Assembly (NCBI GenBank): GCA_027492205.1 | Contig: JAOZFN010000009.1 | Location: 1 to 64,000 of the forward strand | Source: Thermoproteota archaeon | GTDB taxonomy: Archaea; Korarchaeota; Korarchaeia; Korarchaeales; Korarchaeaceae | Direction of reading: 5' to 3' | DNA length: 64,000 nucleotides | Shown here: piece after piece, positions 5,664 through 64,000 of the stretch | How the letters are laid out: every line of letters starts with the position of its first letter | How positions within the stretch are numbered: the first letter of the stretch is position 1 | Program-made: the position numbers and the translations under genes | The notes under the pieces: model-generated | The model's database searches: none | What the model was told of the DNA's origin: nothing | What the model saw: only the letters and a program-made list of their open reading frames with translations

Positions 5664-5683
5664 TATAAGTCAGCATTCTTATA
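5664..5683. promoter_or_regulatory. Inverted repeat TATAAG-N8-CTTATA between divergent genes (back-to-back TATA boxes and/or operator)
   Basis: Perfect 6-bp inverted repeat in the AT-rich gap between the ECF-S gene and the ThrC-like/wHTH gene. Confidence 0.5.
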
Positions 5684-5712
5684 TTTGAGTCAGAAAGCTT
5701 ATGTATCGGACT

Positions 5713-7086: not shown

Positions 7087-7124
7087 GGTCGCGTTAATTA
7101 ACGCCCACCCATCGAGAGCGCCCG

Positions 7125-7547: not shown

Positions 7548-7560
7548 AGGTGGCGGGGAC

Positions 7561-8460: not shown

Positions 8461-8492
8461 GGTATTAAGGAGATCGGGAGCAGGCGACCAGA

Positions 8493-8910: not shown

Positions 8911-8978
8911 TGAGGCGAGGCTCGGACGGCACCTTTTTTGAGTGGAGAGCGGGAACTCAAACTGAGAGGCTGTCTATC

Positions 8979-9869
8979 ATGATCCTGCGGGAGGCAGATG
9001 AAGGCGACGTGGGCGACATCGTCGCCGTCTACACCTACGGAGAGCGAATAGACGACCGGCTGGAGAGGGTCCGGAGGTTCGGCTGGTGGGGAGACGAGGA
9101 GGCGCTCGCCTGGTACCTGAAGTCGCTGAAGAGGACCGGAGGTATCTCGATAGTCGCGGTGGAAGAGGAGAAGGTCGTTGGAGAGGCCGAGATAGCCCCC
9201 GACAGTGGCCCCAGTCTCGTCGGAGAGCACGCATTTCTGCTGAGCCTCTGGACGCACCCCAAGTACCGGGGGAAGGGGGTGGGGAAGGCCCTCCTGGACA
9301 GGTGCCTCGAGATAGCCAAGGAGTGGGGCTTCCGAGTGGTCGACACGATCCCGATACCGGGGAGCGAGAAGTTCTTCTCCGCCACGGGGTTCTCCAAGGT
9401 GGCCAGGCAGGTCGTCGCCGAGGCCAGCAGCAGGCCGACCCCTGGGTTGGCAGGGTTAGTCAGCTTGGGGCCGGGGGACTTCCCAGAGAACCTCTGTCTC
9501 CTTGCAGGACACGTGAGGCCTGGAAGGCTCAGCTGGGAACTCCTCTGGGGGCAGGCGGAGGTAGGTCTTGGGCTACCCTCCCCTAAGGCGTTCAGGCTCA
9601 GGGTGGGGTCGTGGAACTTCGCGCTTCTCCTCTACGCCATTCCTTCAAGGAATGGGCCAAAGGCGGCTGCCCTGCTGTGGGGGGAACCCCGAGTGGGAGT
9701 TGGCCAGGTTTTCGACGCCGTCGAGGTCAGCCTCAGAATTGCGTCTGAGGCGGGGTTCAAGAGGGTAAGGGCTCAGCTGTGGGAGAAGTTCCTGCCCTCC
9801 TTCTCGGCCGCTGGATTCGATGAGGTGAAGAAGGTGCCCTGGGTGCGGAAGCAGATCAGGCCCAGATGA
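8979..9869 (+). CDS. GNAT family N-acetyltransferase
   Basis: MILREA start; LWTHPKYRGKGVGKALL acetyl-CoA motif A. Confidence 0.8.
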   Translation: MILREADEGDVGDIVAVYTYGERIDDRLERVRRFGWWGDEEALAWYLKSLKRTGGISIVAVEEEKVVGEAEIAPDSGPSLVGEHAFLLSLWTHPKYRGKGVGKALLDRCLEIAKEWGFRVVDTIPIPGSEKFFSATGFSKVARQVVAEASSRPTPGLAGLVSLGPGDFPENLCLLAGHVRPGRLSWELLWGQAEVGLGLPSPKAFRLRVGSWNFALLLYAIPSRNGPKAAALLWGEPRVGVGQVFDAVEVSLRIASEAGFKRVRAQLWEKFLPSFSAAGFDEVKKVPWVRKQIRPR

Positions 9870-9932
9870 CCGGTGGGGACCCTGTGAGATTAATTAACCC
9901 CCTCGTAGCCGCGCCTGCGGAGGAGTGAGGAA

Positions 9933-10964
9933 ATGGCTGGAGCTTCGTTTGGAGACGGGAAGTACGACGCCATCGTTGTTGGAGGCGGCATAGCGGGCCT
10001 CACGGCGGCCCTCTATCTGGCCAGGCAGAATCTGAGGACCTTGGTGGTCACGATGGACGTCGGCGGACAGCTGCTCTTGGCCACTGAGATTCAGAACTAC
10101 CCGGGATTCAAGTCGATCGACGGATTCAGCCTCTCCAAGAAGGTCGAGGAACAGGCCAAGCTATTTGGAGCCGAGTTCAAGTACGATGAGGTCGTGGAGA
10201 TCGTCAGAGACGGAGACCTCTTCGCAGTCAGGACCGTGACTGGAGGGGAGTATGAGGCAGACGCTCTAATCCTCGCGTTTGGGAAGAAGCCGAGGGAGCT
10301 GGGAGTTCCAGGGGAGGAGAAATTCAAGGGGAGAGGTGTGAGCTACTGCGCGACGTGCGACGCCCCCCTGTTCAAGGGAAAGAGGGTGGTTCTCGCGGGG
10401 GTCGGGCCGCACGGGATCGAGGCCGCCAGCATGCTCTCCGACCTAGTCAGCGAACTGTACTGGGTGTTCCCGGGGGACACTCCCGGGGGAGAGGAGGAGG
10501 TGCTCAAATCGGTGGCCTCGCGACCCAACGTGCGGGTGCTCGCCAAGTCCAAGATAGTGGAGATCCGGGGGGGTTCCAAGGTGGAGGCGGTCCTTGTGGA
10601 GACTCCGGACGGCAGGGTGGAGCTCGAGGTCGACGGGGTGTTCGTAGAGATGGGATACGTGCCCGAGACGGGCATGGTCCGCGGGCTGGTCGAGCTCAAT
10701 GAGAAGGGTGAGATCGTCGTGGACAAGCTCTGCAGGACGTCCGCCCAGGGGGTCTTCGCGGCCGGAGACGTGACGGACGTCCCGTACAAGCAGGCGATCA
10801 TTTCCGCGGGGATGGGCGCCACGGCCGCGCTCTCCGCCTACGGCTACCTGATGAGGAAGAGGGGGAAGGAGCTCAAGACCCTGTCCGACTGGAAGCACGT
10901 CGATGTGGGTGGAGAGAAGGAAGGGCCTGGAGGGGGAGGGCTCTTCTTTGCCCCCCCATCCTAA
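9933..10964 (+). CDS. trxB: Thioredoxin reductase
   Basis: GGGIAG FAD motif, GRGVSYCATCD, GVFAAGD. Confidence 0.9.
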   Translation: MAGASFGDGKYDAIVVGGGIAGLTAALYLARQNLRTLVVTMDVGGQLLLATEIQNYPGFKSIDGFSLSKKVEEQAKLFGAEFKYDEVVEIVRDGDLFAVRTVTGGEYEADALILAFGKKPRELGVPGEEKFKGRGVSYCATCDAPLFKGKRVVLAGVGPHGIEAASMLSDLVSELYWVFPGDTPGGEEEVLKSVASRPNVRVLAKSKIVEIRGGSKVEAVLVETPDGRVELEVDGVFVEMGYVPETGMVRGLVELNEKGEIVVDKLCRTSAQGVFAAGDVTDVPYKQAIISAGMGATAALSAYGYLMRKRGKELKTLSDWKHVDVGGEKEGPGGGGLFFAPPS

Positions 10965-11001
10965 ACACTCACGCCGGCATCGGGTGAGTCCCCGCCACCT
11001 T

Positions 11002-11064
11002 GTCGCCCTGCCTGAGCGCGATGAGATCCTCCCAAACCGGCTTCGCGCTCACCGGCAGGGGTCG
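11002..11064. repeat. 55-bp hairpin with a 16-bp stem, flanked by a GTCG direct repeat
   Basis: ccctgcc-tgagcgcga (11006-11021) pairs with tcgcgctca-cc-ggcaggg (11043-11060); gtcg lies at 11002-11005 and 11061-11064. Confidence 0.6.
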
Positions 11065-11071
11065 GTTCCAT

Positions 11072-11983
11072 TCAATCACCGACACTGGGTTCCAAGCCTG
11101 AGAGTCGCCGTATCATTTGTGCAACGAGTCTGATCTCCCTCTGAGCCTCGGGCGCCGCCCTGAGCCTGATGAAGTGGGTCCACGCAGAGTCCCTACCGCT
11201 AATCAGGATCCTAGTGGTGCACGCCTGTGGGAGGATGTACCTGGCGTCCTCCATCTCCACGCCAGCGTCAACAAGTCCGTAGTAGATTTTGAGGGATCTC
11301 TCGACTTCCCTCTCCATCCTCCTCCTCAGCTCGGCGTCGAGGTGGCCGGGTAGGTAGTACCCGGCGACCTGAGACACCCTCTGGCTCTGCTGAGTGAAGC
11401 TCAGCGCCCTGTGCCTGACCAGCTGGTGGCTGCAGACCCTGGATATCCCTTCCACCAAGAACGCGTGGAAGCCGTGCCTCGGATCTGGCCAGGGAGAAGA
11501 CAGGAGCATGTGGACCCAGATGTCCTCCACCTCCTCGCTCGACAGCTCGACCCAGAAACCGACCCCTGGGCCCCCTCCTTCTGAACTCAGTCCCAGGGCC
11601 CTGGAGAGAATTGGGAAGTGGAGGAGGATCCTCTTGGCCAACTCTCTGACCTCAGGGTCACCGCGCTCGATCATCTCGACGGCGACGCGGGGGTTCATGG
11701 ACAGAAGTCCCTCGTCCTCGGACAGCTCCACGAACTTCCAGTGAAAGAGCCTCGACTTAACCTCCTCCGGATCGTCCTCGATCCACACTCGGATGAGGCT
11801 GTGCTCGAACACGGAGAGGTGTCCCCAACCCAGGAGCTTTCTGAAGAGTAGCTCCATCCTCTTGGGCGTCGCCTCCCCGATCATGCCCTCCACGGGCTTG
11901 GAACTCCGGGACACCCTCGCGCCCAGATACAGGAGCCAGTCCCCTCCGGCGACCTCAACCCTTGAGACCCTCAACCTCACCAC
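11072..11983 (-). CDS. thyX: FAD-dependent thymidylate synthase
   Basis: GHLSVFEH, SRVCSHQLVRHRALSFTQQSQR, EDARYILP, AQREIR. Confidence 0.9.
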   Translation of the reverse strand: MVRLRVSRVEVAGGDWLLYLGARVSRSSKPVEGMIGEATPKRMELLFRKLLGWGHLSVFEHSLIRVWIEDDPEEVKSRLFHWKFVELSEDEGLLSMNPRVAVEMIERGDPEVRELAKRILLHFPILSRALGLSSEGGGPGVGFWVELSSEEVEDIWVHMLLSSPWPDPRHGFHAFLVEGISRVCSHQLVRHRALSFTQQSQRVSQVAGYYLPGHLDAELRRRMEREVERSLKIYYGLVDAGVEMEDARYILPQACTTRILISGRDSAWTHFIRLRAAPEAQREIRLVAQMIRRLSGLEPSVGD

Positions 11984-12509
11984 CCAGGCTCTTGGGGAGG
12001 CTCACGCCCCTCTGCCCCTGATAGAAGCCGGAGTACGGCCTCGAGGACTTGCCGTCGAGCCTGAAGAAGACCACGTGAAGGAACCTGACCCCCCTGTAGA
12101 TCTTCACGGGGGATGGCCTGGTCCAGGCGACCTCTACGGTCAGCTGCCCCTCAAAGCCAGCGTCTACGAGAGTCGGGGCGGACAGGAACCCCCACCGGGC
12201 GAAGGTGCTCCTGAGACCGCAGAGCCCTGCCACGTCCTCCGGGAGCCTAACCCTCTCCTGAGTGACCAGGAGAAGGCTCGTGTCTCCGGGGACTATGAGT
12301 CCCTCATCTGGGATCTCTCTTATCACGAAGTGCTTCTCCGGATCGGCGCTCCTGAGGTCGATCACTTCGCCCCCGAAGGATGGAAACGCCACCTCCTCAC
12401 CGATTCTCAGGTCGACACCGTTTTCTCGAATAGTGTCTGGGTAGAGGGGATCTATCTCAAGTCTACCCGACTCTAACAGGCCTCTTATGGCCTTGTCGCT
12501 CAGTAGCAT
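11955..12509 (-). CDS. dcd: dCTP deaminase
   Basis: MLLSD start, ENGVDLRIG, RSTFARWG, VDAGFEGQLTVE, YQGQ. Confidence 0.92.
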   Translation of the reverse strand: MLLSDKAIRGLLESGRLEIDPLYPDTIRENGVDLRIGEEVAFPSFGGEVIDLRSADPEKHFVIREIPDEGLIVPGDTSLLLVTQERVRLPEDVAGLCGLRSTFARWGFLSAPTLVDAGFEGQLTVEVAWTRPSPVKIYRGVRFLHVVFFRLDGKSSRPYSGFYQGQRGVSLPKSLGGEVEGLKG

Positions 12510-12586
12510 GTCTCCGCCCACCCTCGTGGGCCCAGGATTTAATGCCGCGTTGGCCGCCTGTCCAAGCACGTTCCCAGGCAGTCACC

Positions 12587-13009
12587 TCAGATTGCGTACT
12601 CCAGCGAGCCCGACCCCTGCTGGCCTCTCTGCTGCCTCGATATCACGGGTGCGGGGAGCGGCGGGGGGACGCCGATGGATCGGCTGGCCACCACGGCGTC
12701 GGCCATCGCGGATGAGAACACCGCCTGGACCACGGCGTCGGGGGGCTTACCAGAGCTGGACCTCTGAACGGCTTCCTTAACCTCCTTTTCGCTTCCCTGG
12801 ATCAGGACTATCCCTCTGATCGTTATCTGAGCCACCGCCGGATTGTAAGTTGCCGAGACGACGAACGATCCCTTTGCCTTTCCCTGGCCAGCTGGCTCAA
12901 GCTTGTGAACGGTCACGTTAAGCTGTATCTGAACAGGAGCAGGTAAAGGGGTCTCGACGTCCCAGAGACGCTCTGCGGAGATGCTTGTGGTCCTCACGCT
13001 CACCATCAT
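12587..13009 (-). CDS. Hypothetical protein (beta-strand/helix pattern, possibly SecB-like)
   Basis: Plausible ORF with a GVPPPLP tail; function not recognised. Confidence 0.55.
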   Translation of the reverse strand: MMVSVRTTSISAERLWDVETPLPAPVQIQLNVTVHKLEPAGQGKAKGSFVVSATYNPAVAQITIRGIVLIQGSEKEVKEAVQRSSSGKPPDAVVQAVFSSAMADAVVASRSIGVPPPLPAPVISRQQRGQQGSGSLEYAI

Positions 13010-13103
13010 GGCGGTACTTGCGCACTCCCTCGAGGCCTATTTTTAATGATCTTGTGGCCCTAGGGTCAGACGTGCACACTCTCCTGTCCAGGGAGGTCTA
13101 AGA

Positions 13104-13985
13104 TTGGGCGCCCTGATCGGCTTGATAGGGAGATACCCGCCCCCCGTTGTCGTAGAGCCCCAGACGCCTCTAGTAAACGTCCTAAGGGGGTTGAAGAACA
13201 GGGCGGTTAGGCACGCGCTCGTGCAGGAGGAGGGGCGGCTTGTCGGGATAATATCTGCCAGGGACATCCTCCGCGATATCGTCAGGGCCGAGGATAGAAC
13301 TCTCTCACAACTGAACGAGAGACTCGCAAGGGATGTGATGACCCGGGACGTCGTAACGGTCGGCTTCGAGGAGGGCTTCGCGAGGCTGGTGGAGAAGTTC
13401 CTTGAGCACGACTTCGGGACAATCCCCGTTGTCGGCGCCAAAGGCAAGGCTGTGGGCGTTGTATCAGAGCGCCACATCGTGGACGCGCTTTCCGGACACG
13501 TGACTTATGTTCGCGTCGGTGAGATAGCCAGCTCCCCGTTGATCACGGCTGACGCCGGATCCACGCTCTACGACGCGATCGCCAAGATGGTCGAGTTCAA
13601 CATACGGAGAGTTCCGTTCATCGGAGAGACCGGAAGCCTGACGGGGATCATCACGCTGAAGGATGTCGTCTCTCTCTTGGGATCTTGGAGGACGGTGGAG
13701 GCAATTGAGGTGGGGAGAGGGGGCGAGATCCTCGATACTCCGCTCGACCCAACGTGGAGGTGCTCTATCGCCTCGATCGACTCCAAGGTCGACGTCAGTG
13801 AGGCTCTCAAGAAGATGAGGTCGCTGGGGGTCGGAAGCCTGCTGGTGAGAGACGGTGACCAGATAGTGGGGATAGTGACGGAGAGGGACGTGGTCAGGAA
13901 ACTACCCAAGGTCATGGGCGCTGACGTCTTCGTCGACGCGGTCAGGCAGGAGATCTTCGTGGGTAGGATATCCAAGTACGGATGA
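13104..13985 (+). CDS. Four-CBS-domain protein
   Basis: Repeated LVGIISARD / VGVVSERH / GIITLKD / VGIVTERD. Confidence 0.88.
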   Translation: MGALIGLIGRYPPPVVVEPQTPLVNVLRGLKNRAVRHALVQEEGRLVGIISARDILRDIVRAEDRTLSQLNERLARDVMTRDVVTVGFEEGFARLVEKFLEHDFGTIPVVGAKGKAVGVVSERHIVDALSGHVTYVRVGEIASSPLITADAGSTLYDAIAKMVEFNIRRVPFIGETGSLTGIITLKDVVSLLGSWRTVEAIEVGRGGEILDTPLDPTWRCSIASIDSKVDVSEALKKMRSLGVGSLLVRDGDQIVGIVTERDVVRKLPKVMGADVFVDAVRQEIFVGRISKYG

Positions 13986-13986
13986 T

Positions 13987-14982
13987 CTAACCCGAGAGGA
14001 CCCTCCAGAGTTCCTCAGAAACGGGTCTGTTGAGGTCAAGCTTCGATCCGTCTAACCTCTCCAAGACGCGGACGGAGGGATCAGAGACGAACTCTCCCAC
14101 TACTGCCGCGGCGATGCCGTTCGCCCTGAGCTCGCGGACGATCTCCTCGGCCGAGTCCACTGGGGCCGCTATGAGCAGGGAGCCCGAACTCACGAGTCGA
14201 AGGGGGTCAGCCCCCAGGGCCTCGCACACTACCTGGGTCTCCGGCCTGATCGGGATATCCTCCTCGCGGACAACGACCCCGACGCCGGACGCCATGGCGA
14301 CCTCCTGAATTCCGGCGGCTATTCCCCCCTCGGTGGGGTCGTGGAGCGCGTGCGCCCCTAAGTCGGCGGCGATCCTCGCGTCCCTGACAACGCTTATCTC
14401 TCGGATGAACTCCGCAGCCCTGTCTAAAACGCCCTCGTCGACCTTTTCGGCGAGCCTCTCCCTCAGGTCGGTCGCCAAGATGGCCGTCCCCTCGAGGGCA
14501 GCCGCCTTGGTTACTATGGCCAGATCGCCGGGCTTCGCTCCGGAACTCCTGATGAGCTTGTCGGGGCTCGTGAATCCTATGGCCGTCGTGACAATTATGT
14601 CTCGGTCGAGCCAGGGTGTAACCTCCGTGTGGCCGCCGACCACGCTCGCCCCGACCTCGTCGGCGGCGGACCTTATCTGATCGGCCAGCTCCTCGAGCCT
14701 CTCGAACGTAGTGCCGCCGCTGGCCAGGAGGGTCACGACGAGCCACCTCGGGTCGGCCCCCGAGGTGGCGACGTCGTTGCACGCCACGTGGACAGACAGC
14801 CATCCCGCGTTCCTACCGGCCCCGGTGATGGGGTCCGAGTGAACCACCACTGCGACCCCGTCGGCCAAGAGGGCCGCGTAGTCCTCGCCCAACCCTGGAC
14901 CCAGGAGGACGTCGTCCCTTGGCTCGTAGATTCTGCTCAGGAATTCCCCCAGCTGATCGGGTGGGAGCTTTCCAGCCAGCAC
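13987..14982 (-). CDS. AIR synthase/HypE-family protein
   Basis: GKLPP, GPGLGED, SDPITG, NDVATSG, GGHTEVT, HDPTEGG; GTG start inferred. Confidence 0.85.
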   Translation of the reverse strand: MLAGKLPPDQLGEFLSRIYEPRDDVLLGPGLGEDYAALLADGVAVVVHSDPITGAGRNAGWLSVHVACNDVATSGADPRWLVVTLLASGGTTFERLEELADQIRSAADEVGASVVGGHTEVTPWLDRDIIVTTAIGFTSPDKLIRSSGAKPGDLAIVTKAAALEGTAILATDLRERLAEKVDEGVLDRAAEFIREISVVRDARIAADLGAHALHDPTEGGIAAGIQEVAMASGVGVVVREEDIPIRPETQVVCEALGADPLRLVSSGSLLIAAPVDSAEEIVRELRANGIAAAVVGEFVSDPSVRVLERLDGSKLDLNRPVSEELWRVLSG

Positions 14983-55401: not shown

Positions 55402-56853
55402 TCACGGAGCCCCAATCCTCTTCAAAGCCTCCCCGTACTTGATTAAGCCCACCATCGCCCTCGCGGCCCTCTCCGGGGTCGGGTAGGCCGGTATTCCAAG
55501 CTCGTCGAACCTCTCCCTGTAGGCGATTCCGTACTCTCCCTGCCCGATGTCGGCCACCAGGACGGGCTTGTCCCGCCTCTCCCTCACCTCGGCCGCGATC
55601 CTGTCTGGGAGGTCGGAGGTGAGGCCCGGCACGTGGTGAAGCGGGAGCACTATCACCCCGTCGACCTCGGGGGCGTCCAGGAGGATCCGGAGCGACTCCA
55701 CGAACGCGTCGTCCGTGGCGCTCCCCGTGACGTCCACCGGGTTGGCTACGGCCGAGATGGGGGGGATCACGCCCCTGTCCATCAGCTCCCTTAGCCTGGA
55801 CTGCGTCTCCTCGGAGAGCTGGACGACCACGGCCCCCCTGCTCTCGAGCTCGTCGGCCGTCATGACCCCAGCCCCGCCTCCGTCCGTTAGGACGGCGATC
55901 CTGGGCCCCTTGGCCGGAGGCTGCATGGAGAGGGCCTTGGTGACGTCGAAGAGTTCCTCCACTTCGTAGACCCTCACGACGCCAGCCTGCCTGAGGGCGG
56001 CGGAGTAAACCTCGTCAGCCCCCGCCAGCGCGGCTGTGTGCGAGCTCGCCGCCCTGGCGCCCGCCCCGGTCCTGCCAGCCTTGAGCACCACGACCGGCTT
56101 CTTCGGGACGGTTCTCCTGGCGGCCTCGATGAACCTCCTCCCCTCCTCGATCGACTCGGCGTATATCACGATCACCCTGGTTTTGGGGTCGTCGGCCAGG
56201 TACTCCATGAGCTCCACCTCGTCTATGTCCGCCTTGTTGCCGTAGCTTACGAACTTCGCCAGCCCCAGACCCTCGCCAGCCATGTAGTCCACGCAGGCCA
56301 CGCCAAACGCGCCGGACTGGGTGAGGAGGGATATGTTACCAGGCCCGGGCCTCGGGAGGGACAGGAGGTCCCTGCCACCCAGTTCTTTCTTGTAGGGAAG
56401 GAACATGGTGTCCACTCCCGTCTCTGGGCACACTATTCCCACGCAGTTCGGGCCCACCACGCGTATTCCGTGTTTCTTCGCCACCTCAACGAGTTTCTCC
56501 TGAAGCTCGACGCCTTCCCCTCCCACCTCGGCGAACCCACCTGAGATGACGATCACGTGCTTGATCCCCTTCCTGCCGCACTCGTCCACCACGGCCGGAA
56601 CTATCCTCGCCGGGACAACGATCACACCGAGGTCCACCGGCTCCGGCAGGTCGGTGACGCTCGGATAGGTGGGCACGCCCAAGATTGGTTCCTTCGCCTT
56701 GGGGTTCACTGCGTAGAGCCCGCCCTTGTAGAGGCCGCTCCTCTGGTTTTCGACCATAACCCTGAGGAGCTCGTGCCCCACCGAGCCCGGCTCCCGGGAG
56801 GCGCCTATCACGGCAACCGATTCCGGGTAGAAGAAGGGGTCCAGGTGCCCCAC
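55402..56853 (-). CDS. acdA: ADP-forming acyl-CoA synthetase, alpha subunit
   Basis: VAVIGAS, GFAE, GPNCVG, QSGA, SYGNKAD, AASSHT phospho-His motif, GGAGVM, NPVD. Confidence 0.9.
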   Translation of the reverse strand: MGHLDPFFYPESVAVIGASREPGSVGHELLRVMVENQRSGLYKGGLYAVNPKAKEPILGVPTYPSVTDLPEPVDLGVIVVPARIVPAVVDECGRKGIKHVIVISGGFAEVGGEGVELQEKLVEVAKKHGIRVVGPNCVGIVCPETGVDTMFLPYKKELGGRDLLSLPRPGPGNISLLTQSGAFGVACVDYMAGEGLGLAKFVSYGNKADIDEVELMEYLADDPKTRVIVIYAESIEEGRRFIEAARRTVPKKPVVVLKAGRTGAGARAASSHTAALAGADEVYSAALRQAGVVRVYEVEELFDVTKALSMQPPAKGPRIAVLTDGGGAGVMTADELESRGAVVVQLSEETQSRLRELMDRGVIPPISAVANPVDVTGSATDDAFVESLRILLDAPEVDGVIVLPLHHVPGLTSDLPDRIAAEVRERRDKPVLVADIGQGEYGIAYRERFDELGIPAYPTPERAARAMVGLIKYGEALKRIGAP

Positions 56854-56894
56854 GGTTATCCCGCGCGGCCGGCCGCGCATTCCGTTAAAAATCG

Positions 56895-58091
56895 TTAAGA
56901 CGAGGGGGCCGACTCGGCCTCCTCCCTGGCCTCGGCCGCGGTCAGCAGGTGCCTCTCAACCGCCTGCACGGAGGACTCGAACTCCTCCCTCGGCGTATCC
57001 TCCATCTTGGTGAGCTCCTCCTCGTGCACCTCGTAGTAGAGCCTGGCCTCCTTCAGGAGGGAGGGAAGCCTCACCAGCTCCGGCTCCACCAGCAGGATGG
57101 CTATCTCGAAGTACTTAGACCCAGGGGCGACCGCCAGCCCCTCTCTAACGTCCACCCCAGCTATCTTCTCGCTCAGGAGCCTCTTGGCCTCGAACACCGC
57201 GTCTACGTTGAGGTACTCCTCCGGACCCCTGACCACGAGCGCGGCCTTCAGGGCAGTGCCCGTCCTGACCTCGGCCAGGCAGCCCTCCCTGAGGGCGGCC
57301 TCCGTCAGGAACTCCAGGCTCCCGCCGACGGACTCCACCCTAGCCTTCATGTAGCAGGGTACCGTGAGGGAGGCCTCGAAGAACCTGAGGATGGACTTCA
57401 GGTCCTGCGAGTCGAAGGTGGTCTTGTACCCGCCCCTCAAGGGCTCCACGTCGGCCGCCGACATGGCGACCATGCAGCGGCCCACGAGGGAGTTTATCCT
57501 GTCTAGGACCTGCTCGTCGCTCAGCCCCGGCTCGTCCCTGAGGACGATCTCCCTGGCAGTCTCGTTGTCCAAGAGTATCAGCGAGTCGACCCTGCCGAGC
57601 ATGTTGGCCGTGGCTATGACCGAGTTGTAGGCGAACCTCATGCTCTCCTTGGGGAACTTGAAGGGGAGCACGCCCACGGAGACTATGGGCTGGGTGGGCG
57701 GGCCTCCCCCGCCGAGCATCTCCCTGACGTAGTCGGCTACCACCGGCATGGACCCGCTGCCGGTCCCCCCTCCCAAGGCCGCAGAGAGCACCACCGCCGT
57801 CGAGTTCGCTATGCCCCTCTCGGCGACGACCCTCGTGAAGAGTTCCTTGCTCTCGGGTTCCAGCATGGCCTTCATGGAGTCCTTCCACCTGGCGCCGACC
57901 CCAGCGCCGCCGAATTTGCCGAAGAGGTAGAACCTGTCCTTGAGCACCTGGAGCTTGGCCTGGTCAGACACAGAGGTGTTGAAGACTACGGCGTCCACCA
58001 TGGCCGACGGGGCCTCTCCCGTGAACGTGTCGTAGGTCCTGTCGATGATCGCCCCGCCTGCCCCGCCCAGCCCTATCCCAAACCAGCGCAT
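56895..58091 (-). CDS. Tubulin/FtsZ-superfamily GTPase, CetZ-like (non-canonical)
   Basis: GLGGAGG, NTS, GAGVGA, GGGTGSG, VLPF, LLDN, T7-like FDSQD; acidic helical tail. Confidence 0.9.
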   Translation of the reverse strand: MRWFGIGLGGAGGAIIDRTYDTFTGEAPSAMVDAVVFNTSVSDQAKLQVLKDRFYLFGKFGGAGVGARWKDSMKAMLEPESKELFTRVVAERGIANSTAVVLSAALGGGTGSGSMPVVADYVREMLGGGGPPTQPIVSVGVLPFKFPKESMRFAYNSVIATANMLGRVDSLILLDNETAREIVLRDEPGLSDEQVLDRINSLVGRCMVAMSAADVEPLRGGYKTTFDSQDLKSILRFFEASLTVPCYMKARVESVGGSLEFLTEAALREGCLAEVRTGTALKAALVVRGPEEYLNVDAVFEAKRLLSEKIAGVDVREGLAVAPGSKYFEIAILLVEPELVRLPSLLKEARLYYEVHEEELTKMEDTPREEFESSVQAVERHLLTAAEAREEAESAPSS

Positions 58092-58151
58092 TAGGCCACC
58101 TCTTCCTGACGGCCCAAGATGGGAATAATATTAACGAGCGCCGACTCACGC

Positions 58152-60107
58152 TCAGGGTATCCTCCTCGCCAGTCTGCCGAGTAGCTCAGGCAGATCGCTG
58201 GCGGCACGATCGGTCCCGCCCGCTGAGAGTAGTCTCCTGAGTTCCGTGACCAAGCCGGACCTAACGGGCGCGCCCAGCCTCTCCTCCAGAAGGTCAAACA
58301 GTTCGGCGATCGCGTCGACCGCCGGAGCCGTGGGCGGCGCCTCAGGAGCTGGGGCTGGGGCCGGGAGCGGTGCGACGGGCTTCACGGCGGCTTCCTCTAT
58401 AGCCGGGGCTGTAGGTGTTTGCGTGGGCGCCTCCTCGAGTTTCGGTTCTGGCGTCTCGGCTGCGGCCGGCGCTACCGGCCCGCGCTCCGGGGCGCGCTCG
58501 GCCGGCTTAACAGCCTCCAGGCGCCGTACCTCCATCCGGGGAGCGGGCTTGGGCCTCGGGACTTCGACCCTGAGGGGCTTTATGAGATCGCCCTCGAGCT
58601 CCACGAGCCCCTCGTCCCTCAGCCTCCCGATCACCCACGGCCTCCACCTCTCCGGTATCTTCACCAGGTCCCCCACCCTAAGAGTCCCCGCCTTGGAGAG
58701 GGTAGTGAGGGCGTACTCCTTCCAGTAGGGGTAGAACCTCTCGGCGTCCGCCGCGGCCTCGAGGTACTCCGACAGCCTCCTCCGCACCTCCTTGAGCGGC
58801 GCCAGCGCCTGCCGGGCCTTCTCCTCAGGTGACATGGTAGGAACCTGAAGGGCCGCCCTTATGGTGGCCAGGACCGCGTCACCGTCCGAGACGAGCTTCA
58901 GCTGCTGAGAGATGGGTCCGGCCCTCTGCTCGGCTCTCCTGATGTATATCAGAAGTTCTAGGTTCTCTCTGATCCTCCTCACCTCCCGGTCGATCCTGTC
59001 CACGTCGTCTGGGTCCTTGACCTCGGCCCCCGCCCTGATCGAGGACAGCCTCACCGCCAGCGACCCTATCAGGGCGGTGAACGCGTTGGTGTTGAACTCC
59101 CTGTCGAGCATCTCGGCGGCCTTCTCGGCCTCGGAGATCAGGGCGAAGGCGCTCTCAAGCTCCAAGCTCAGTCTCTCTAGCTTCTCGAGCCCGTTCAGGA
59201 GGGGTTTGAGGGCCCTCTGCTCCAGAGACCTGAGGTCCACGAGGGCGTTCTCCATGCACTCCAGGTCCTCAGGGGGGCACCGGTTCTCGATCCGGGCGAT
59301 CCTGGCCTCGATCCACCTCACCGAGTCCTCGACGTAAACTGGGTCTATCCCGCTCTCCCTTATCCTGCTCGCCTTGAGGCGGATCGACTCTATCTGCCCC
59401 CTCACCCTAGAGAGCTCCGCCGCTAGGGCTGCCCTAGCCTCTTTAGACCTGGCGAGAACCTCTCTGATCTCTCTGATTTCTGAGTCGATCCTCTGGGTCT
59501 CTATAAGGGCGGCCTCGAGATCTGAAGTCGACTTCAGGGGAGAGCTCAGGAGTTCTTCCACCTTGGCGAGGTGGCCCCTCAGCTTGGAGGCTATCTCTGA
59601 GAACCCTCCCCTCTCGGCGGCGCCCAGCAGCTCCCTCGCATCCGCCTCGAGCGTCTCCAGCTTCCTCAGTAGGACTTTCCTGGCCTCCTCCCCTATCGCC
59701 CAGAGAACCGCCTCCAGAGAATCCATGAGGGACTCTATCCTGGGTGAGTACCGCCTGGCCACTCCCCCCTTCCCGAACGCCTTTCCCAGCGCCCTGGAGA
59801 GCGGACCCGGCTTCGAGGCGACGTCGGGATCGGAGGCCATCTCTCGAACGAGCTCGTCCACCTTCTCCACGACGCTCGTGAGTCTCGGCTTCAGCTCCTC
59901 CACCTGGAGGCTTCCGAGATCCTCCAGCCTCTGGAGTATGCCGTCCCCCCTCGCCGTCATCAGGAGGAGGAGCCCCAGTGCCTCCAGGATACCCGCCATC
60001 TCCAGGTTCTCGATCATGTACTCGACGACTTCGCTGGAGATCCCTCTCCTCTGCAGCTCTTTGAAGACGTATTCCCTGCTCGACTCGCTGCCCGACAGGG
60101 CAGGCAC
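58152..60107 (-). CDS. Long helical/coiled-coil protein with a wH-like segment, Pro/Ala linker and C-terminal helical domain
   Basis: About 450 aa heptad-rich region, then WVIGRLRDEGLVELEGDLIK, a PAPAP linker and a short helical tail. Confidence 0.75.
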   Translation of the reverse strand: MPALSGSESSREYVFKELQRRGISSEVVEYMIENLEMAGILEALGLLLLMTARGDGILQRLEDLGSLQVEELKPRLTSVVEKVDELVREMASDPDVASKPGPLSRALGKAFGKGGVARRYSPRIESLMDSLEAVLWAIGEEARKVLLRKLETLEADARELLGAAERGGFSEIASKLRGHLAKVEELLSSPLKSTSDLEAALIETQRIDSEIREIREVLARSKEARAALAAELSRVRGQIESIRLKASRIRESGIDPVYVEDSVRWIEARIARIENRCPPEDLECMENALVDLRSLEQRALKPLLNGLEKLERLSLELESAFALISEAEKAAEMLDREFNTNAFTALIGSLAVRLSSIRAGAEVKDPDDVDRIDREVRRIRENLELLIYIRRAEQRAGPISQQLKLVSDGDAVLATIRAALQVPTMSPEEKARQALAPLKEVRRRLSEYLEAAADAERFYPYWKEYALTTLSKAGTLRVGDLVKIPERWRPWVIGRLRDEGLVELEGDLIKPLRVEVPRPKPAPRMEVRRLEAVKPAERAPERGPVAPAAAETPEPKLEEAPTQTPTAPAIEEAAVKPVAPLPAPAPAPEAPPTAPAVDAIAELFDLLEERLGAPVRSGLVTELRRLLSAGGTDRAASDLPELLGRLARRIP

Positions 60108-60108
60108 C

Positions 60109-60591
60109 TCAGAGGGTTTTCCGCCGCCTATTTTTATCGATGCTGGGTGGCACTTCGAAGAAGTTTCTGGCCAGCCTCGTGGCCCAAGCGTACATCTTGC
60201 CGTTCTTCTTCCTCACGCCGACCAGGCCCTCGCGCCTGAGCCTCTTGACGTGCCTGTAGGCCGACGCCCCCCTCACCCTCGCGAGGTCAACCAAGTACAT
60301 GCCGCCCCTCTCCAAGAGGACGGCGAGGGTCCTGAGCTCTCCCCTGGTCAGCTCCGGTCTCGGGGCCAGCCTCCCCACGACGCCGTGAAACTCCCGCTTG
60401 AGGGTCATGTACCACCCGGTGGGCCTCCGCTCGATGGCTATGGACCTGCCCCTGTAGACCTCCTCGAGTCGAGATATCCAGCCGGGCACCTCCTCTGGGG
60501 GCACACCCGCGACCTTGGCCAGTTCCTCCTCCGAGAGCGGCCTGCCGGCGATGAAGAGCGCGGCCTCAATCACCAACTCCGGTCTGGTCAA
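60109..60591 (-). CDS. scpB: SMC-Scp complex subunit ScpB
   Basis: IEAALFIAGRPLS, ELTRGELRTLAVL, RGASAYRHVKRL..GLV. Confidence 0.9.
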   Translation of the reverse strand: MTRPELVIEAALFIAGRPLSEEELAKVAGVPPEEVPGWISRLEEVYRGRSIAIERRPTGWYMTLKREFHGVVGRLAPRPELTRGELRTLAVLLERGGMYLVDLARVRGASAYRHVKRLRREGLVGVRKKNGKMYAWATRLARNFFEVPPSIDKNRRRKTL

Positions 60592-61153
60592 CCCGCCTCA
60601 ACCGTATTAGGATCTCACCAAAAAGGGTCTCCTGCTGAAGCTCGACCTCCCCCTCCAGCTCCATGTGGAGGAGGGAGACCATAGCCTCGGCCGCCTCGGA
60701 CCTGTCCCTGGCCAGCTCGTGGAAGGGAACCTCGCGGCGTCCCGATCTGCCGATCAACTCCAGGAGCCTGGACCTCACCCTGTCCAAGTGCTCCGCCAGG
60801 CTCATTGCCGCCGAGATTATCCTGGAGAGGCCGTCCTCAGCCCTCCCGAGCGTTCTCGCCCACTCGATCGCCGCGGCGAACTCTGAGGGTCTGGGCCTCC
60901 GGGCCGGCACCCTCCCCAGCAGGGGCTCGGGAATGGTGGCCGCGGGAGCGGGCCTAATCCGCCTGGCCCCGGGTTTGGTCCCCTGGGGAGCCTCCTCGTC
61001 CTCGCCCAGCTTCGCGAGTGAGTCGGCGAACCTCCTAAGCTCGACCGCCAGGGAGTAGAGGGTCCTGGCAGCCCAGGGCATGTCCCGGGTTCGGCGGAAC
61101 TCTGCGAGGACGCGCTCAACCCTCAGCAGTATATTCGACGCGATCGAACTCAT
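60566..61153 (-). CDS. scpA: Kleisin ScpA (short, divergent)
   Basis: C-terminal SLLHMELEGEVELQQETLFGEILI kleisin wH motif; lies between smc and scpB. Confidence 0.82.
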   Translation of the reverse strand: MSSIASNILLRVERVLAEFRRTRDMPWAARTLYSLAVELRRFADSLAKLGEDEEAPQGTKPGARRIRPAPAATIPEPLLGRVPARRPRPSEFAAAIEWARTLGRAEDGLSRIISAAMSLAEHLDRVRSRLLELIGRSGRREVPFHELARDRSEAAEAMVSLLHMELEGEVELQQETLFGEILIRLRRVDQTGVGD

Positions 61154-63476
61154 CGAGCCTCACGCCCACCACCTTAGACTCGCCGTTCACCATCCTCACG
61201 CCAAGTATGGCGTCCGCCTCCTCGAGCGTGTCCTTCTTGAGGGAGATTATGATCACCTGCGACCCCCTTGCCACCATCCTCCTCAGGAGGGCCGCGTACC
61301 TCTTGCAGTTCCTCCCGTCCAGCATCATGTCTGCCTCGTCGAAGAAGTAGAGCGGGCTGGGTCGGACGCTCTGGAGGGCGTATATGAAGGCCAAGGCCGT
61401 GAGAGACTTCTCCCCGCCCGAGAGCGCCTCCATCGGAACCTCTCCCTTCTCCGGGAGGTTGACCCTGACCTCGAGCTCCAGTCTCGGCCACTCGCCCGAC
61501 ATCCAGACCTCACCCTCCCCGCCGAACATCTCTCCTATGGCCTCGTTGAATGCCTTCGACACCTTCTCGACGGTTTCCCTCAGGACCGCATCCCTCTCCT
61601 TTGCTATCTCGTCCAGGGCCCTCTCTATCGAGGCCCTCGCCTCTTCCAGCTGGGCCAGCGTCTCATCCATCTCCCGGGCCTTCGCCTCCTCCCTCCTCAG
61701 CTCCTCCAACGCGTCTGGACCGACCAGCGGAATGGTCCGGAGCCTGGCCGCCACGGCGGCGTACTCGGACTCCGGATCGTCGGACTCGGCCGCCTCCACG
61801 TCCTTCAGGCTCGCGAGCCTTGTCCTGAGCTCCTCTAGCCTCTGAGTCAGCTTACCTCTCTCCTCGGCGACGGCGCGCATCCTTCGCTCGTACGCCAGCC
61901 TCGAACTCATGGCCCTCTCAAGGTCGGCTCTGAGTTCGTCTATCCTCCTCCTCACCTCCCTCAGGGCCTCCTCAACCTCATGGGCGCGCTCCGGCGGGGG
62001 GAGTTCCCGCGCCCTCGCCTCCAGCTCCTCCAGCCTCTCCATGACCCTCTCCCGCTCCTCCAGCAGCTCTTCCAGCCTCCTCCTGAGGCGCCTCTCCTGC
62101 GCTGGGGAGGGGGGAGAGGACAGGATGCTGCCGTCCCTCTCGAGGATCTCGCCGTGCAGGCTGACGAATCGGTACCTGCCAACGTCGGACCTGGGGATGG
62201 AGTCCAAGTCCTCCACGAGCACGGCGTTCCCGACAATCGCCCCCACGAGTCCCTCCACGCCGGGCTCCGCCAGGACGTATTCTCTGAGCAGCCCGAGGGA
62301 GTACTCGGGCGGGTTCACGGGTCTCGGAGGCCTCAGGACGTCAAGCGGGAGCACCCTTATCCTGCGGCTCAGTCTCGAGCCTCTGAGGGACCTCACCATC
62401 TCGAGTCCGGCCTCCAGGGTTCTGACCACCGCATCGCCAACCCTCGCCCCGGCGACCGCCCTGTAGGCCATCTCGTAGCCCTCCACGGGCCTCACCAGTT
62501 CCGCGACTATCCCTACGTAATCCGGGTGACTCGTCACCGACCTCGGGGGCGGGGAGGCCCCCATGGTCGCCAAGAGGGTTCTCACCCCCTCCAGCTCCGC
62601 TTCAAGGGACCTGAGCCTCTCCCTGAGGGTCGCTATTCGGGCCTTGACCGTGGCGGCCTCACGGGCCCTCTTGAGTTCTTCCGAGCCCTCCAGCTTCCTG
62701 AGTTCCGACTCAGCCCGCCTGACCTCCCTCTTAATCTCCTCGATCTCCTCCTCGGATATGGCGGGGGCCTCCGGGGGCTGCAGCTCTTCTAGGTCCCTCT
62801 CGGTTCTCTCCATCCTCCTCAGTAGGACGGCCTTCTCCAGGGAAGCCAGTCTGCGCTCCAGCTCTTCCCTCTCGCGGTACGCCTCCGCCCTCCTCCTCAG
62901 AAACTCCAGCCTCTCCAGCCTGTCCCTCTGGAGCGCCCTGAGCACCCTGATGCGCTCCTCCACTCGCTCTAACTCTCTCAGCGTCTCCTCTCTCTTCCTC
63001 TCGAACTCCTCGACTCCGCTGATCTCCAGAATCAGCGCTGCCCTCTCCCTCGGGGTCGACTCGATTACTGCAGTGACCTCGCCCTGGCTGACGAAGTTGT
63101 GTCCGTCGGCCCTTAGGCCGAGCTCTGCCAGGGCGTCTCTGACCTCGTTGGCGGACGCCAACCTGCCGTTGAGTCTGTAGGACCCTCCAGATCTAGTTAT
63201 CCTCCTCTCGAGCCTCAGCGCCCCACCGGGGTGTCTGAGGACCAGCTCGACGGAGCAGGTGGCGGCCCCCTTCCTGATCAGGCCCCTGAGCCCCTGGGAC
63301 CTGAGCCAGCTCCCCCTGGCGCCCATGGCGAACATGACCGCCTCCATCACGTTGGACTTGCCCGAGCCGTTGGGCCCTGTGATGGCGGTCAAGTCGGAGG
63401 GGAACTCTATGGCGGCGCTGCGGAAGGACTTGAAGTTCTTCAGCCTGATCTTCGTGAGCCTGACGCCTGTGGTCAG
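61116..63476 (-). CDS. smc: SMC protein with hinge and short arms (about 786 aa; CTG start)
   Basis: LKNFKSF, GPNGSGKSN, SQG, hinge (GIVAELV..LPLD..VSLHGE), LSGGEKS, FFDEAD..LD. Confidence 0.92.
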   Translation of the reverse strand: MTTGVRLTKIRLKNFKSFRSAAIEFPSDLTAITGPNGSGKSNVMEAVMFAMGARGSWLRSQGLRGLIRKGAATCSVELVLRHPGGALRLERRITRSGGSYRLNGRLASANEVRDALAELGLRADGHNFVSQGEVTAVIESTPRERAALILEISGVEEFERKREETLRELERVEERIRVLRALQRDRLERLEFLRRRAEAYREREELERRLASLEKAVLLRRMERTERDLEELQPPEAPAISEEEIEEIKREVRRAESELRKLEGSEELKRAREAATVKARIATLRERLRSLEAELEGVRTLLATMGASPPPRSVTSHPDYVGIVAELVRPVEGYEMAYRAVAGARVGDAVVRTLEAGLEMVRSLRGSRLSRRIRVLPLDVLRPPRPVNPPEYSLGLLREYVLAEPGVEGLVGAIVGNAVLVEDLDSIPRSDVGRYRFVSLHGEILERDGSILSSPPSPAQERRLRRRLEELLEERERVMERLEELEARARELPPPERAHEVEEALREVRRRIDELRADLERAMSSRLAYERRMRAVAEERGKLTQRLEELRTRLASLKDVEAAESDDPESEYAAVAARLRTIPLVGPDALEELRREEAKAREMDETLAQLEEARASIERALDEIAKERDAVLRETVEKVSKAFNEAIGEMFGGEGEVWMSGEWPRLELEVRVNLPEKGEVPMEALSGGEKSLTALAFIYALQSVRPSPLYFFDEADMMLDGRNCKRYAALLRRMVARGSQVIIISLKKDTLEEADAILGVRMVNGESKVVGVRLDEFDRVEYTAEG

Positions 63477-64000
63477 GAGATCACCCTCCTGCCCTCCTCA
63501 GTGATCCTGAGGATGCTTCCCCTTGGGGTCTTCTCCATCTCGATGAAGCCCCCCTCGCTCAGCCTCCTAGCCCTGCGCCAGATCGTAGTCTTGGGCATCT
63601 CGAGGGCAGCCCTAAGCTCGGACAGGTAGGCAGATCCGCCCATCTGGTCCAGCTTCCTGAGGAGGGCTATGTCGTCGTACGAGAGCGGGGGCCTCTCTCC
63701 GGAGGTCCTCCTCCCCCGCGCCCGGAGGAGGAGTGCTATAGCGGCCGCCACGACGGCCCCGGCGGTCGCGATCCCGACCCAGAGGTATCTCAGCTCCCAC
63801 TCCGGCTGTGGTCCGTGAGATCTCGCCAGGAGGACGTAGGAGACCCAACAGGGGGTCTCCATGAAGACTATTGTCCTGTTGTCCACCGAGGTGACCGCGG
63901 AGGGCAGCTCAGACATCCCGACTAGGAGCGAGCCCTTCGGGAGTCGGATCTCGCAGGTACCCAGGTTGACGCTCAAGTTCACCGTCCAGACGTCTCCCTC
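63473..64000 (-). CDS. Membrane-anchored winged-HTH protein (5'-truncated by the window)
   Basis: Extracellular beta region, TM WVGIATAGAVVAAAIALLL, then LSELRAALEMPKTTIWRRARRLSEGGFI. Confidence 0.8.
   Translation of the reverse strand, partial: EGDVWTVNLSVNLGTCEIRLPKGSLLVGMSELPSAVTSVDNRTIVFMETPCWVSYVLLARSHGPQPEWELRYLWVGIATAGAVVAAAIALLLRARGRRTSGERPPLSYDDIALLRKLDQMGGSAYLSELRAALEMPKTTIWRRARRLSEGGFIEMEKTPRGSILRITEEGRRVIS

Follow-up and report, generated by a model that had tools for sequence, protein, structure and literature searches.

A tubulin homologue of Korarchaeota and a 651-aa helical protein, here called X, probably constitute a new tubulin-partner module. Their genes lie on the minus strand of the window (the whole stretch of 64,000 nucleotides analysed), directly behind smc, scpA, and scpB (Table 1). 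The conserved functional unit is probably a two-gene cytoskeletal module in which X1, the subfamily of X encoded here, docks on the tubulin, and the position behind the condensin genes is not required for it. The linkage of the tubulin gene with the condensin genes is confined to two sister genera, g1 and g4. Thus, a filament-coupled condensin system, which had been proposed in an earlier note on this DNA, is not supported.

Table 1. Features of the locus in the window
Feature	Position	Strand	Remarks
169-aa protein, hydrophobic helix and C-terminal wH/HTH	63473..63982	-	weak HTH_27/MarR matches, E ~2e-3
SMC, short, ~786 aa	61116..63476	-	SMC_N 1.6e-51, SMC_hinge 9.5e-15
ScpA (kleisin), 195 aa	60566..61153	-	overlaps smc by 38 nt
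ScpB, 160 aa	60109..60591	-	PF04079 6.2e-22, 78.3 bits (cutoff 27.4); overlaps scpA by 26 nt
ATAAAAATA box, 3′ end of scpB	60129..60137	-	centre ~26 nt upstream of the X GTG
X (X1 subfamily), 651 aa	58152..60107	-	GTG start, 1 nt past the scpB stop
Helix-plus-wH module of X, residues 441-513	58569..58787	-	invariant A455, Y459, W462, P485, W488, R489
TTAATATTATT box, X-tubulin gap	58124..58134	-	38 nt from box centre to tubulin ATG
CetZ-like tubulin-superfamily GTPase, 398 aa	56895..58091	-	PF00091 3.6e-17; 60-nt gap after X
Predicted X contact on tubulin, residues 250-269 (post-S7 loop and helix H9)	57285..57344	-	complex prediction
ADP-forming acyl-CoA synthetase-like gene	55402..56880	-	begins 14 nt past the end of the tubulin gene

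The layout described earlier, with smc, scpA, and scpB overlapping one another, a helical protein starting right after scpB, and a tubulin-superfamily gene following on the same strand, agrees with the coordinates, the domain matches, and the AF2 model of X, which shows a helical protein with a winged helix (wH) in its C-terminal part. Close homologues carry the source name Candidatus Korarchaeota. The three overlapping genes have the canonical order of Smc-ScpAB condensin. However, the SMC scores below the cutoff of TIGR02169 (416.9 versus 729.4 bits; a 1165-position model), and its coiled-coil arms should be about half the usual length, since the hinge lies at residues 318-425 of a protein of ~786 aa. 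This short form is found phylum-wide, and most SMC ORFs in the phylum have 764-833 aa. The first ATG, GTG, or TTG codon of smc is the TTG at 63392 (ORF 61116-63392), and the conserved N-terminus reaches the CTG at 63476. This putative CTG start overlaps with the TGA stop codon of the 169-aa protein gene, a context gene kept upstream of smc in genus g1 (G001, G003, and G004). ScpA had no Pfam match in a direct search, and its Rad21_Rec8 C-terminal matches are weak. A profile built from 11 ScpA orthologues matched PDB chains in the C-terminal wH (4i99_C, 1.7e-11; 5xns_C, 4.1e-11) and in the N-terminal domain (6ivh_A, 5.7e-7).

The tubulin homologue is nearest to CetZ in both sequence and fold. 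It matches PF00091 with 63.7 bits (cutoff 33) and has the GGGTGSG motif at residues 107-113, a DSQD motif (DxxD, T7-type) at residues 227-230, and conserved C-terminal helices at residues ~341-394. Its best PDB sequences are CetZ proteins (4b46, 2.3e-21; 4b45, 1.9e-15; 3zid, 2.6e-14), and the top four Foldseek matches are CetZ1, CetZ, and CetZ2 at ~1e-13, with FtsZ and tubulin at 1e-10. An assignment to FtsZ (best PDB match 2.9e-12) or to TubZ (4xcq, 1.6e-6) was thus rejected. The g2 orthologues lack both T7 aspartates, and a dynamic filament is therefore doubtful in that genus. A term search of the accessible text of a CetZ family review (PMC9856176) returned neither 'Korarchae' nor an X-like partner gene. 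Contigs from RNA libraries comprised only three tiny pieces.

X had no family or fold match in Pfam, NCBIfam, and PDB searches, and its model (mean pLDDT 80.9) matched no solved structure at E <= 1e-3. In this model, helical bundles (residues 7-473) are followed by the wH (474-511), a disordered Pro/Ala linker (514-593), and three C-terminal helices (595-649). The protein is acidic as a whole (pI 5.3), with a wH segment of pI 9.2. The X family is confined to Korarchaeota family f1, except for a few distant matches, and a quick tree divides it into X1 and X2 clades (SH-aLRT 85 for the split).

Is the pairing of X and tubulin conserved? In the 15 genomes with a tubulin orthologue, belonging to genera g1, g4, g5, and g2, X adjoins the tubulin gene in 11 genomes from all four genera, lying immediately upstream in 10 and one gene away in G007. 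It is unlinked in two g5 genomes (G014 and G017), and contig ends make the linkage undeterminable in the other two (G002 and G018). The 10 immediate pairs are separated by 45-63 nt or, in g2, share a 4-nt start/stop overlap, and the g2 order is repeated on one metagenome contig. The gene preceding the pair varies: scpB in g1 and g4, a nucleotidyltransferase gene in g5, and an aminotransferase gene in g2. Since the adjacency is retained down to 35% identity of the tubulin and ~20% identity of X while the upstream neighbours differ, it is above chance. Furthermore, all ten g3 genomes searched lack a tubulin orthologue (best E-values 1e-4 to 1e-6), and the quick tree places every g3 X protein in the X2 clade, none in X1. 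Thus, X1 and the tubulin orthologue show matching presence and absence at the genus level. In summary, the X-tubulin pairing is conserved in four genera, while the full smc-scpAB-X-tubulin order exists only in the sister genera g1 and g4.

A direct contact between the two proteins is predicted. The complex prediction for X and tubulin gave a score of 0.65 (0.66, 0.62, and 0.65 in individual runs), while the best of three controls reached 0.01. The runs had at least 97% of contacts in common, with partner pLDDT of at least 86. Of 80 solved complexes, 58 had attained the score mark, as had 2 of 110 mismatched pairs, counts that apply only roughly here because own alignments and three chains were supplied. 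Since no solved structure resembles X, a known complex remembered by the predictor is an unlikely source of the score. On the X side, the predicted interface consists of residues 447-465 and 482-488 in the helix-plus-wH module, and four of its 15 residues (A455, W462, P485, and W488) are invariant, compared with 14 of 651 over the whole of X1 (p = 1.6e-4). The tubulin side is not extra conserved (3/15 invariant versus 74/398, p = 0.55), and its contact domain has pLDDT < 50 in the AF2 monomer model. W462, P485, and W488 are also invariant in the X2 paralogues encoded beside Ras-like GTPases; therefore, the motif could be structural or could bind a partner common to both subfamilies. Of the idea of a coiled-coil wH adaptor, the part that makes X a partner of the tubulin agrees with the adjacency, the presence/absence pattern, and the predicted complex. 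A wH acting as a free DNA reader does not fit that complex, in which it is the tubulin-binding surface.

The module may work as follows. The Korarchaeota-specific, CetZ-like tubulin homologue would form a filament, and X1 would serve as a large helical scaffold whose C-terminal helix-plus-wH docks on the C-terminal domain of the tubulin, at the post-S7 loop and H9. The N-terminal bundles, the disordered linker, and the helical tail of X may serve to recruit or space the filament or to regulate it. The place behind smc-scpA-scpB would be a gene order inherited by two sister genera; co-transcription with the condensin genes is possible in g1 and g4 without being a requirement of the module.

It is also conceivable, albeit rather unlikely, that X mainly serves switches of the small-GTPase type, as their scaffold, regulator, or effector. 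Docking of GTPases would then be a general property of the X family, and X1 would act on the nucleotide state or localization of the tubulin instead of being a cargo adaptor. A Ras/Arf-like GTPase gene (~200 aa) lies directly after the X2 gene in 14 of the 16 g3 genomes examined, and X2 divergently adjoins such a gene in 4/4 g2 genomes. In DPANN/Micrarchaeota, distant X homologues have 1216-1763 aa, and three of the four giant proteins scanned carry a Roadblock/LC7 domain (PF03259, ~1e-11) right after the X C-terminal region. Domains of this type, as in MglB and Ragulator, pair with small GTPases. The residues invariant across the family also fall on the predicted docking surface. On the other hand, none of six g5 X paralogues has a GTPase neighbour, and X is predicted to touch the tubulin at a site remote from the nucleotide pocket. 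This possibility overlaps with the docking module rather than excluding it.

A bridge by which X ties a tubulin-like filament to DNA or to condensin (ScpB or SMC), giving chromosome segregation by filaments in analogy to TubZRC, is quite improbable. X does start 1-3 nt past the scpB stop codon on the same strand in 5/5 g1 genomes (a count that takes in G002, where one contig carries SMC and X) and in 1/1 g4 genome, this order survives divergence to 44% identity of SMC and 30% of X, and the wH fold is shared with TubR and ScpB. However, the condensin linkage is missing in g5 (0/2 examined) and g2 (0/4), where unrelated genes precede the pair, and other genes come after smc-scpA-scpB in g3, g5, and g6, so that the gene order on the SMC side is not conserved in relatives. 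The g2 genomes (71-93% complete, so that absence is not proven) retain X-tubulin, with an SMC hinge in 1/5 and ScpB in 0/5. The wH of the acidic X is the predicted tubulin contact, and no iteron or centromere-like repeats were found in the region. Moreover, X and the tubulin gene each have an AT-rich, TATA-like box in front, and separate transcription is therefore possible. The ATAAAAATA box, which may be an archaeal TATA box giving X a leaderless transcript, is identical in G000, G001, and G003, with AT-rich variants in G004 and G007. The AT-rich box noticed earlier in the 58092-58151 gap, TTAATATTATT, is indeed present and is followed by GAGGTGG (58102-58096). It is kept in 4/4 g1 genomes, in one of them as a variant, and is missing from g4, in which another gene stands before the tubulin gene. 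Judging from the sequence, the two elements may provide the tubulin gene with a promoter of its own, a ribosome-binding site, or both.

It is very improbable that X and the tubulin are mere co-inherited neighbours with a falsely passing complex score: although the carriers are all members of a single taxonomic family and the four genera are not independent, mismatched pairs did reach the mark at times while the X-tubulin job differed from the calibration set-up, and the probably unrelated acyl-CoA synthetase-like gene is equally conserved beside the tubulin gene (g1, g4, and g2) with no functional link apparent, the adjacency has outlasted rearrangement on both sides and deep divergence, the g2 genes overlap, X1 and the tubulin orthologue match in their distribution over the genera, and the predicted interface coincides with the invariant X motif.

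The docking module of X1 and tubulin can be compared with several known systems. It recalls MglA/MglB-type Roadblock systems and ArvA-ArvB-ArvC, an archaeal vesiculation operon according to the accessible part of its description (PMC10927574), through the X2-GTPase neighbourhoods and the Roadblock/LC7 fusions. It differs in that a domain search gave no DUF2073 (ArvB) or DUF2072 (ArvC) match for X and that the X2-type neighbour GTPase was not found in the genome of the window with the query used. The closest matches of the tubulin are euryarchaeal, Haloferax volcanii CetZ1/CetZ2 and Methanosaeta CetZ, with which it shares the Tubulin/FtsZ GTPase domain with GGGTGSG and a helical C-terminal extension in place of the FtsZ_C domain. 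The CetZ_C match is weak, with PF21011 precomputed on two orthologues but below the Pfam cutoff for the copy at the locus (17.2 versus 21.6 bits), and this Korarchaeota protein is only ~20% identical to CetZ.

TubZRC is a plasmid and phage partition system of a TubZ filament, the wH adaptor TubR, and the centromere tubC. There too, a tubulin-superfamily GTPase gene lies beside the gene of a wH-containing partner. However, the TubZ match is far weaker than that of CetZ, TubR is a small DNA-binding wH dimer while X is a large acidic scaffold, the locus has no iterons, and the X wH is predicted to sit on the tubulin's globular C-terminal domain rather than on its tail. The X-tubulin pair is also chromosomal and limited to one archaeal family. 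Archaeal SepF is an anchor and modulator of FtsZ, whose C-terminal peptide it binds along with the membrane. As in FtsZ-SepF, the genome would encode a binding protein dedicated to a tubulin-family filament protein, with the binding by X being predicted; X has neither similarity to SepF nor a membrane segment, and its predicted place is on a lateral surface of the tubulin C-terminal domain.

The last ~9 kb of the window is a minus-strand gene run with hardly any non-coding DNA (see the table). The smc-scpA overlap is 38 nt long and the scpA-scpB overlap 26 nt. A single nucleotide separates the scpB stop codon from the gene of X, a helical protein, and the gene of a tubulin homologue follows X after 60 nt. 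In g1, the genus of the window's genome, an acyl-CoA synthetase-like gene lies 14 nt past the tubulin gene; it is also the downstream neighbour in the sister genus g4 and in the genus g2. When the ORFs and the sequence were checked again, the coordinates and spacings of the earlier note were right. Its identification of smc, scpA, scpB and the tubulin gene also holds by Pfam and, for ScpA, by a profile compared with solved structures.

Genes at the end of the window and loci of related genes in other Korarchaeota genomes (L, extracted locus; G, genome)
Feature	Sequence	Coordinates	Strand	Basis
169-aa membrane-helix and wH protein	window	63473-63982	minus	
SMC	window	61116-63476	minus	SMC_N and SMC_hinge above Pfam cutoffs
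ScpA	window	60566-61153	minus	11-orthologue profile against PDB
ScpB	window	60109-60591	minus	Pfam PF04079
X, 651 aa	window	58152-60107	minus	
Tubulin-superfamily protein, 398 aa	window	56895-58091	minus	Pfam PF00091
ADP-forming acyl-CoA synthetase-like gene	window	55402-56880	minus	
g2 tubulin orthologue without T7 aspartates	L028	1728-2909		
g2 tubulin orthologue without T7 aspartates	L029	2439-3623		
g2 tubulin orthologue without T7 aspartates	L030	2691-3875		
X2-GTPase pair	L047 (G013)	12463-14651		
X2-GTPase pair	L048 (G009)	6467-9029		
Tandem FtsZ-like genes	L047 (G013)	3592-9158		
Tandem FtsZ-like genes	L051 (G019)	8572-14201		

Both the head and the hinge of SMC are present (SMC_N, 175.3 bits; SMC_hinge, 55.5 bits; Pfam). 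The protein falls below the cutoff of the whole-protein equivalog TIGR02169 (416.9 vs 729.4 bits) because its arms are short. ScpB matches PF04079 with 78.3 bits (cutoff 27.4). As a single sequence, ScpA has no Pfam match; the profile of 11 orthologues matched an N-terminal domain (6ivh_A, 5.7e-7) and a C-terminal winged helix (wH; 4i99_C, 1.7e-11; 5xns_C, 4.1e-11) in the PDB. SMC matches at E ≤ 1e-20 are present in 34 of the 43 Korarchaeota genomes (for example, G013:C1:247727-249976), and the protein is short throughout the phylum, most ORFs being 764-833 aa in length with the hinge near residue 320-425. Compared with the 1165 positions of TIGR02169, the arms are thus roughly half the canonical length. 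Korarchaeota ScpA is likewise short (174-200 aa). In smc, the stretch before the conserved N-terminus lacks ATG, GTG and TTG codons (window 63392-63500). In all four g1 genomes a CTG (63476 in the window) shares bases with the TGA of the preceding gene, as CTGA, and the genome G004 has an in-frame GTG at a codon that reads GTC in the window's genome (G000), G001 and G003. These features suggest that smc is translated from a non-canonical start or by reinitiation.

What kind of tubulin does the window encode? The protein matches PF00091 over residues 6-182 (63.7 bits, cutoff 33). Residues 107-113 are GGGTGSG, the glycine-rich nucleotide-binding signature of the tubulin/FtsZ superfamily, in which G107-G111 and G113 are invariant (11-12 orthologues aligned), and a helical C-terminal extension (residues ~341-394) is strongly conserved. 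The nearest solved sequences are the CetZ entries 4b46, 4b45 and 3zid (2.3e-21, 1.9e-15 and 2.6e-14), ahead of every FtsZ, tubulin and TubZ chain, and CetZ structures occupy ranks 1-4 of the fold search (Foldseek). PF21011, the CetZ C-terminal domain, is just under its cutoff in the window's copy (17.2 vs 21.6 bits), and two g5-type orthologues have a precomputed match to it. The tubulin homologue is CetZ-like, a label that comes from the nearest sequence and fold and not from phylogeny. In the superfamily phylogeny as outlined in PMC9856176, the CetZ clade is bounded by Thermococcales CetZ. An FtsZ identity was rejected: the best FtsZ chain in the PDB search (2.9e-12) stands behind three CetZ entries, the protein reaches 40.6 bits with TIGR00065 (cutoff 295.2), and there is no match to PF12327 (FtsZ_C). 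The window's genome does have a separate FtsZ-like gene, on a different contig (G000:C10:32578-33060). A TubZ identity was dismissed since TubZ (4xcq) scores 1.6e-6, far behind CetZ, and appears at Foldseek rank 35.

The orthologues of g1, g4 and g5 have a T7-type motif, D227-S-Q-D230. Acidic residues of the T7 loop (DxxD/E) are required for GTP hydrolysis in the polymer. Both aspartates are gone in three g2 orthologues, in which DSQD is replaced by SAQG or SAQS. These orthologues retain GGGTG and an X partner with a 4-nt overlap, and their sequences suggest that they may be hydrolysis-dead.

The AF2 model of X (alignment of 16 sequences) has a mean pLDDT of 80.9. Residues 7-473 form helical bundles, mostly with pLDDT > 90, which are followed by a wH (474-511), a Pro/Ala-rich disordered linker (514-593) and three short C-terminal helices. 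Conservation peaks in the pre-wH helix and the wH (A455, Y459, P460, W462, P485, W488 and R489). The family motif of this helix-plus-wH module is YPxW ... IPxxWRxW, and W462, P485, W488 and R489 are invariant in 16/16 sequences. The whole X protein has no match in Pfam or NCBIfam. Six pieces have no Pfam match even at E ≤ 10: the N-terminal 110 aa of four orthologues and, from the X of the window, a 72-aa piece and the last 202 aa. Thus, a resemblance of the N-terminus to RecX repeats is unsupported and was dropped. Searching PDB sequences with X gave chance matches alone (E ≥ 0.3). The model had no Foldseek match at E ≤ 1e-3; all that appeared were small proteins resembling its wH, among them 5n35, which aligns over 57 residues. 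One unnamed ESM Atlas cluster at 0.81 was under the useful range. Close relatives are few: 7 from a word-based protein search, 9 loci from a genome-contig search, all of them already known, and 1 locus of g2 type from metagenome contigs. Of 1.84 billion representative proteins, only 42 matched an X profile at E ≤ 1e-3.

Is this gene order common in Korarchaeota? The collection comprises 43 species genomes of the phylum, 41 of which were searched for the tubulin orthologue. It was found in 15 genomes of g1, g4, g5 and g2, and the 10 genomes of g3 searched gave weak matches only (E 1e-4 to 1e-6). Tubulin-like matches in other phyla (genomes G032 and G037) have unrelated neighbour genes. The X family is present in 31/43 genomes, with every match inside the family f1 and none in the eight genomes outside it (profile A1). 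In 10 of the 15 genomes carrying the tubulin orthologue, X is directly upstream of the tubulin gene. X is one gene away in G007 and unlinked to the tubulin gene in G014 and G017; in G002 and G018 the arrangement is cut off by contig ends. The gene inserted in G007, a g4 genome, encodes a 464-aa helical protein (L024 8714-10108) with no X-family or Pfam match. The gene before X varies: scpB in g1 and g4, a nucleotidyltransferase gene in g5 and an aminotransferase gene in g2. Since scpB precedes X only in g1 and g4, the condensin-X-tubulin order is one state shared by these sister genera. Overlapping smc-scpA-scpB genes are also found in g3, g5 and g6, where different genes come next. Of five g2 genomes, which are 71-93% complete, one gave an SMC hinge, located at a contig edge, and none gave a ScpB match. 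The family-wide conserved unit is X and the tubulin gene, often with the acyl-CoA synthetase gene.

A quick tree divided the X family into two subfamilies, X1 and X2 (SH-aLRT 85 for the split), and X1 contains every tubulin-linked copy. In g3, X2 is directly followed, often with an overlap, by a gene for a ~200-aa Ras/Arf-like GTPase in 14 of 16 genomes examined. In g2, X2 is divergently adjacent to a Ras/Arf-like GTPase gene in 4/4 genomes. None of six additional X paralogues of g5 has a GTPase neighbour. In the window's genome X1 is the sole X-family copy, and an X2-type GTPase was absent with the query used. A Korarchaeota ArvA homologue is described in PMC10927574, and the X2-neighbour GTPase may be this protein. 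A second GTPase-like gene (~300 aa) lies two or three genes off in 7 of the g3 loci examined. The wider neighbourhood was examined in two g3 genomes, G013 and G019. In both, the X2-GTPase pair is ~3 kb away from an array of five tandem FtsZ-like genes, whose products are 323-360 aa in length and between which small ORFs (85-105 aa) occur. Distant X matches include giant proteins, two of which are source-named Micrarchaeota or Gugararchaeum. In three of four giant proteins scanned, a Roadblock/LC7 domain directly follows the X C-terminal region. These three (P0045, P0047 and P0051) are 1216-1763 aa in length and match PF03259 at about 1e-11; one is source-named Micrarchaeota.

Complex prediction was performed with X residues 1-513 and 590-651 and the whole tubulin homologue, as three chains with custom alignments. 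Binding of the adaptor to the tubulin homologue was predicted, with a score of 0.65 vs 0.01 for the best control. In calibration, the mark was met by 58/80 solved complexes and 2/110 mismatched pairs, which is only roughly valid for a three-chain job. Three runs had at least 97% of contacts in common, with a partner pLDDT of at least 86. The predicted interface consists of X residues 447-465 and 482-488 and tubulin residues 250-269 and 326. From the order of secondary structures in the model, the tubulin residues belong to helix H9 and the loop that follows S7. I take this region to be the M-loop region of tubulins; the mapping is tentative because the domain has pLDDT < 50 in the AF2 monomer. 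The 15 interface residues of X hold 4 of its 14 invariant residues (p = 1.6e-4), and invariant residues are not enriched on the tubulin side (p = 0.55). X2 shares three of the interface invariants of X, and this makes the case for a specific interface weaker. Of the coupling of condensin or DNA to a tubulin-like filament proposed in the earlier note, the partnership of adaptor and tubulin has computational support of three independent kinds. The condensin coupling does not: synteny across Korarchaeota gives it no support apart from the gene order of a single small clade. With broader support, no other claim on the locus would have been as striking.

In g1 and g4, co-transcription may still tie the module functionally to condensin. 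However, two AT-rich TATA-like boxes, called from reading the sequence alone, are conserved within g1: one lies inside scpB, ~26 nt before the start of X (60137-60129), and the other 38 nt before that of the tubulin gene (58134-58124). One of 20 sequencing runs is an RNA library. Its coverage of 56800-60700 consists of three contigs (56800-56970, 58824-58975 and 60140-60373) with a depth of 2-3.4, possibly from DNA carry-over, and these are uninformative on strand, ends and co-transcription. The first contig spans the junction of the tubulin and acyl-CoA synthetase-like genes, and the scpB-X and X-tubulin junctions are outside the three small contigs. A far-reaching model can be drawn. X would be an archaeal family of GTPase-docking scaffolds whose helix-plus-wH module binds a CetZ-like tubulin (X1) or a Ras/Arf-like GTPase (X2) and occurs in DPANN giants as a fusion with Roadblock/LC7; in the window's genus, X1 would be co-transcribed with smc-scpAB, and the CetZ-like filament made at the same time as an unusually short-armed condensin and physically coordinated with it. 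I consider this whole model unlikely.

At this locus a member of the tubulin family is paired with a predicted partner of its own, which comes from a new family, and the X family is undescribed so far. To my knowledge, no direct binding partner of any CetZ-type tubulin has been reported; a literature search found none, for Korarchaeota or otherwise. The X-tubulin pair is not described in the full-text literature searched, including passages in the main texts of PMC9856176, PMC10927574, PMC12787533, PMC2875224, PMC3349469 and PMC10936438. The term 'Korarchae' is absent from the text of the CetZ review PMC9856176, whose supplementary tables, like those of the ArvA paper PMC10927574, could list Korarchaeota homologues, and the terms FtsZ, tubulin, CetZ and GTPase are absent from the main text of the Korarchaeota genomics paper PMC12787533, which covers 101 MAGs. 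The predicted interface between W462, P485 and W488 of X and S7-H9 of the tubulin homologue offers a testable entry to the recruitment or regulation of non-FtsZ archaeal tubulins. The pairing of the X family with Ras-like GTPases and its fusion to Roadblock/LC7 in DPANN hint at a docking module common to archaeal cytoskeletal and small-GTPase systems.

How might the pair work? X1 is predicted to grip the CetZ-like protein via its helix-plus-wH module, and the docking site would be a lateral surface of the tubulin C-terminal domain. The large helical body and the tethered C-terminal helices of X may then recruit, space or regulate the filament. Both the polymerisation of the tubulin homologue and the cellular role of the module are what I infer here. 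The likeness to TubZRC suggested in the earlier note fails in several respects, and the GTPase itself is not TubZ-like. TubZRC has an iterated centromere, tubC, whereas no iteron array was found in the window region. Its adaptor TubR is a small DNA-binding wH protein, whereas X is not small and basic, with 651 aa and a pI of 5.3. TubR binds DNA; in contrast, the wH of X is predicted to contact a protein, the tubulin homologue.
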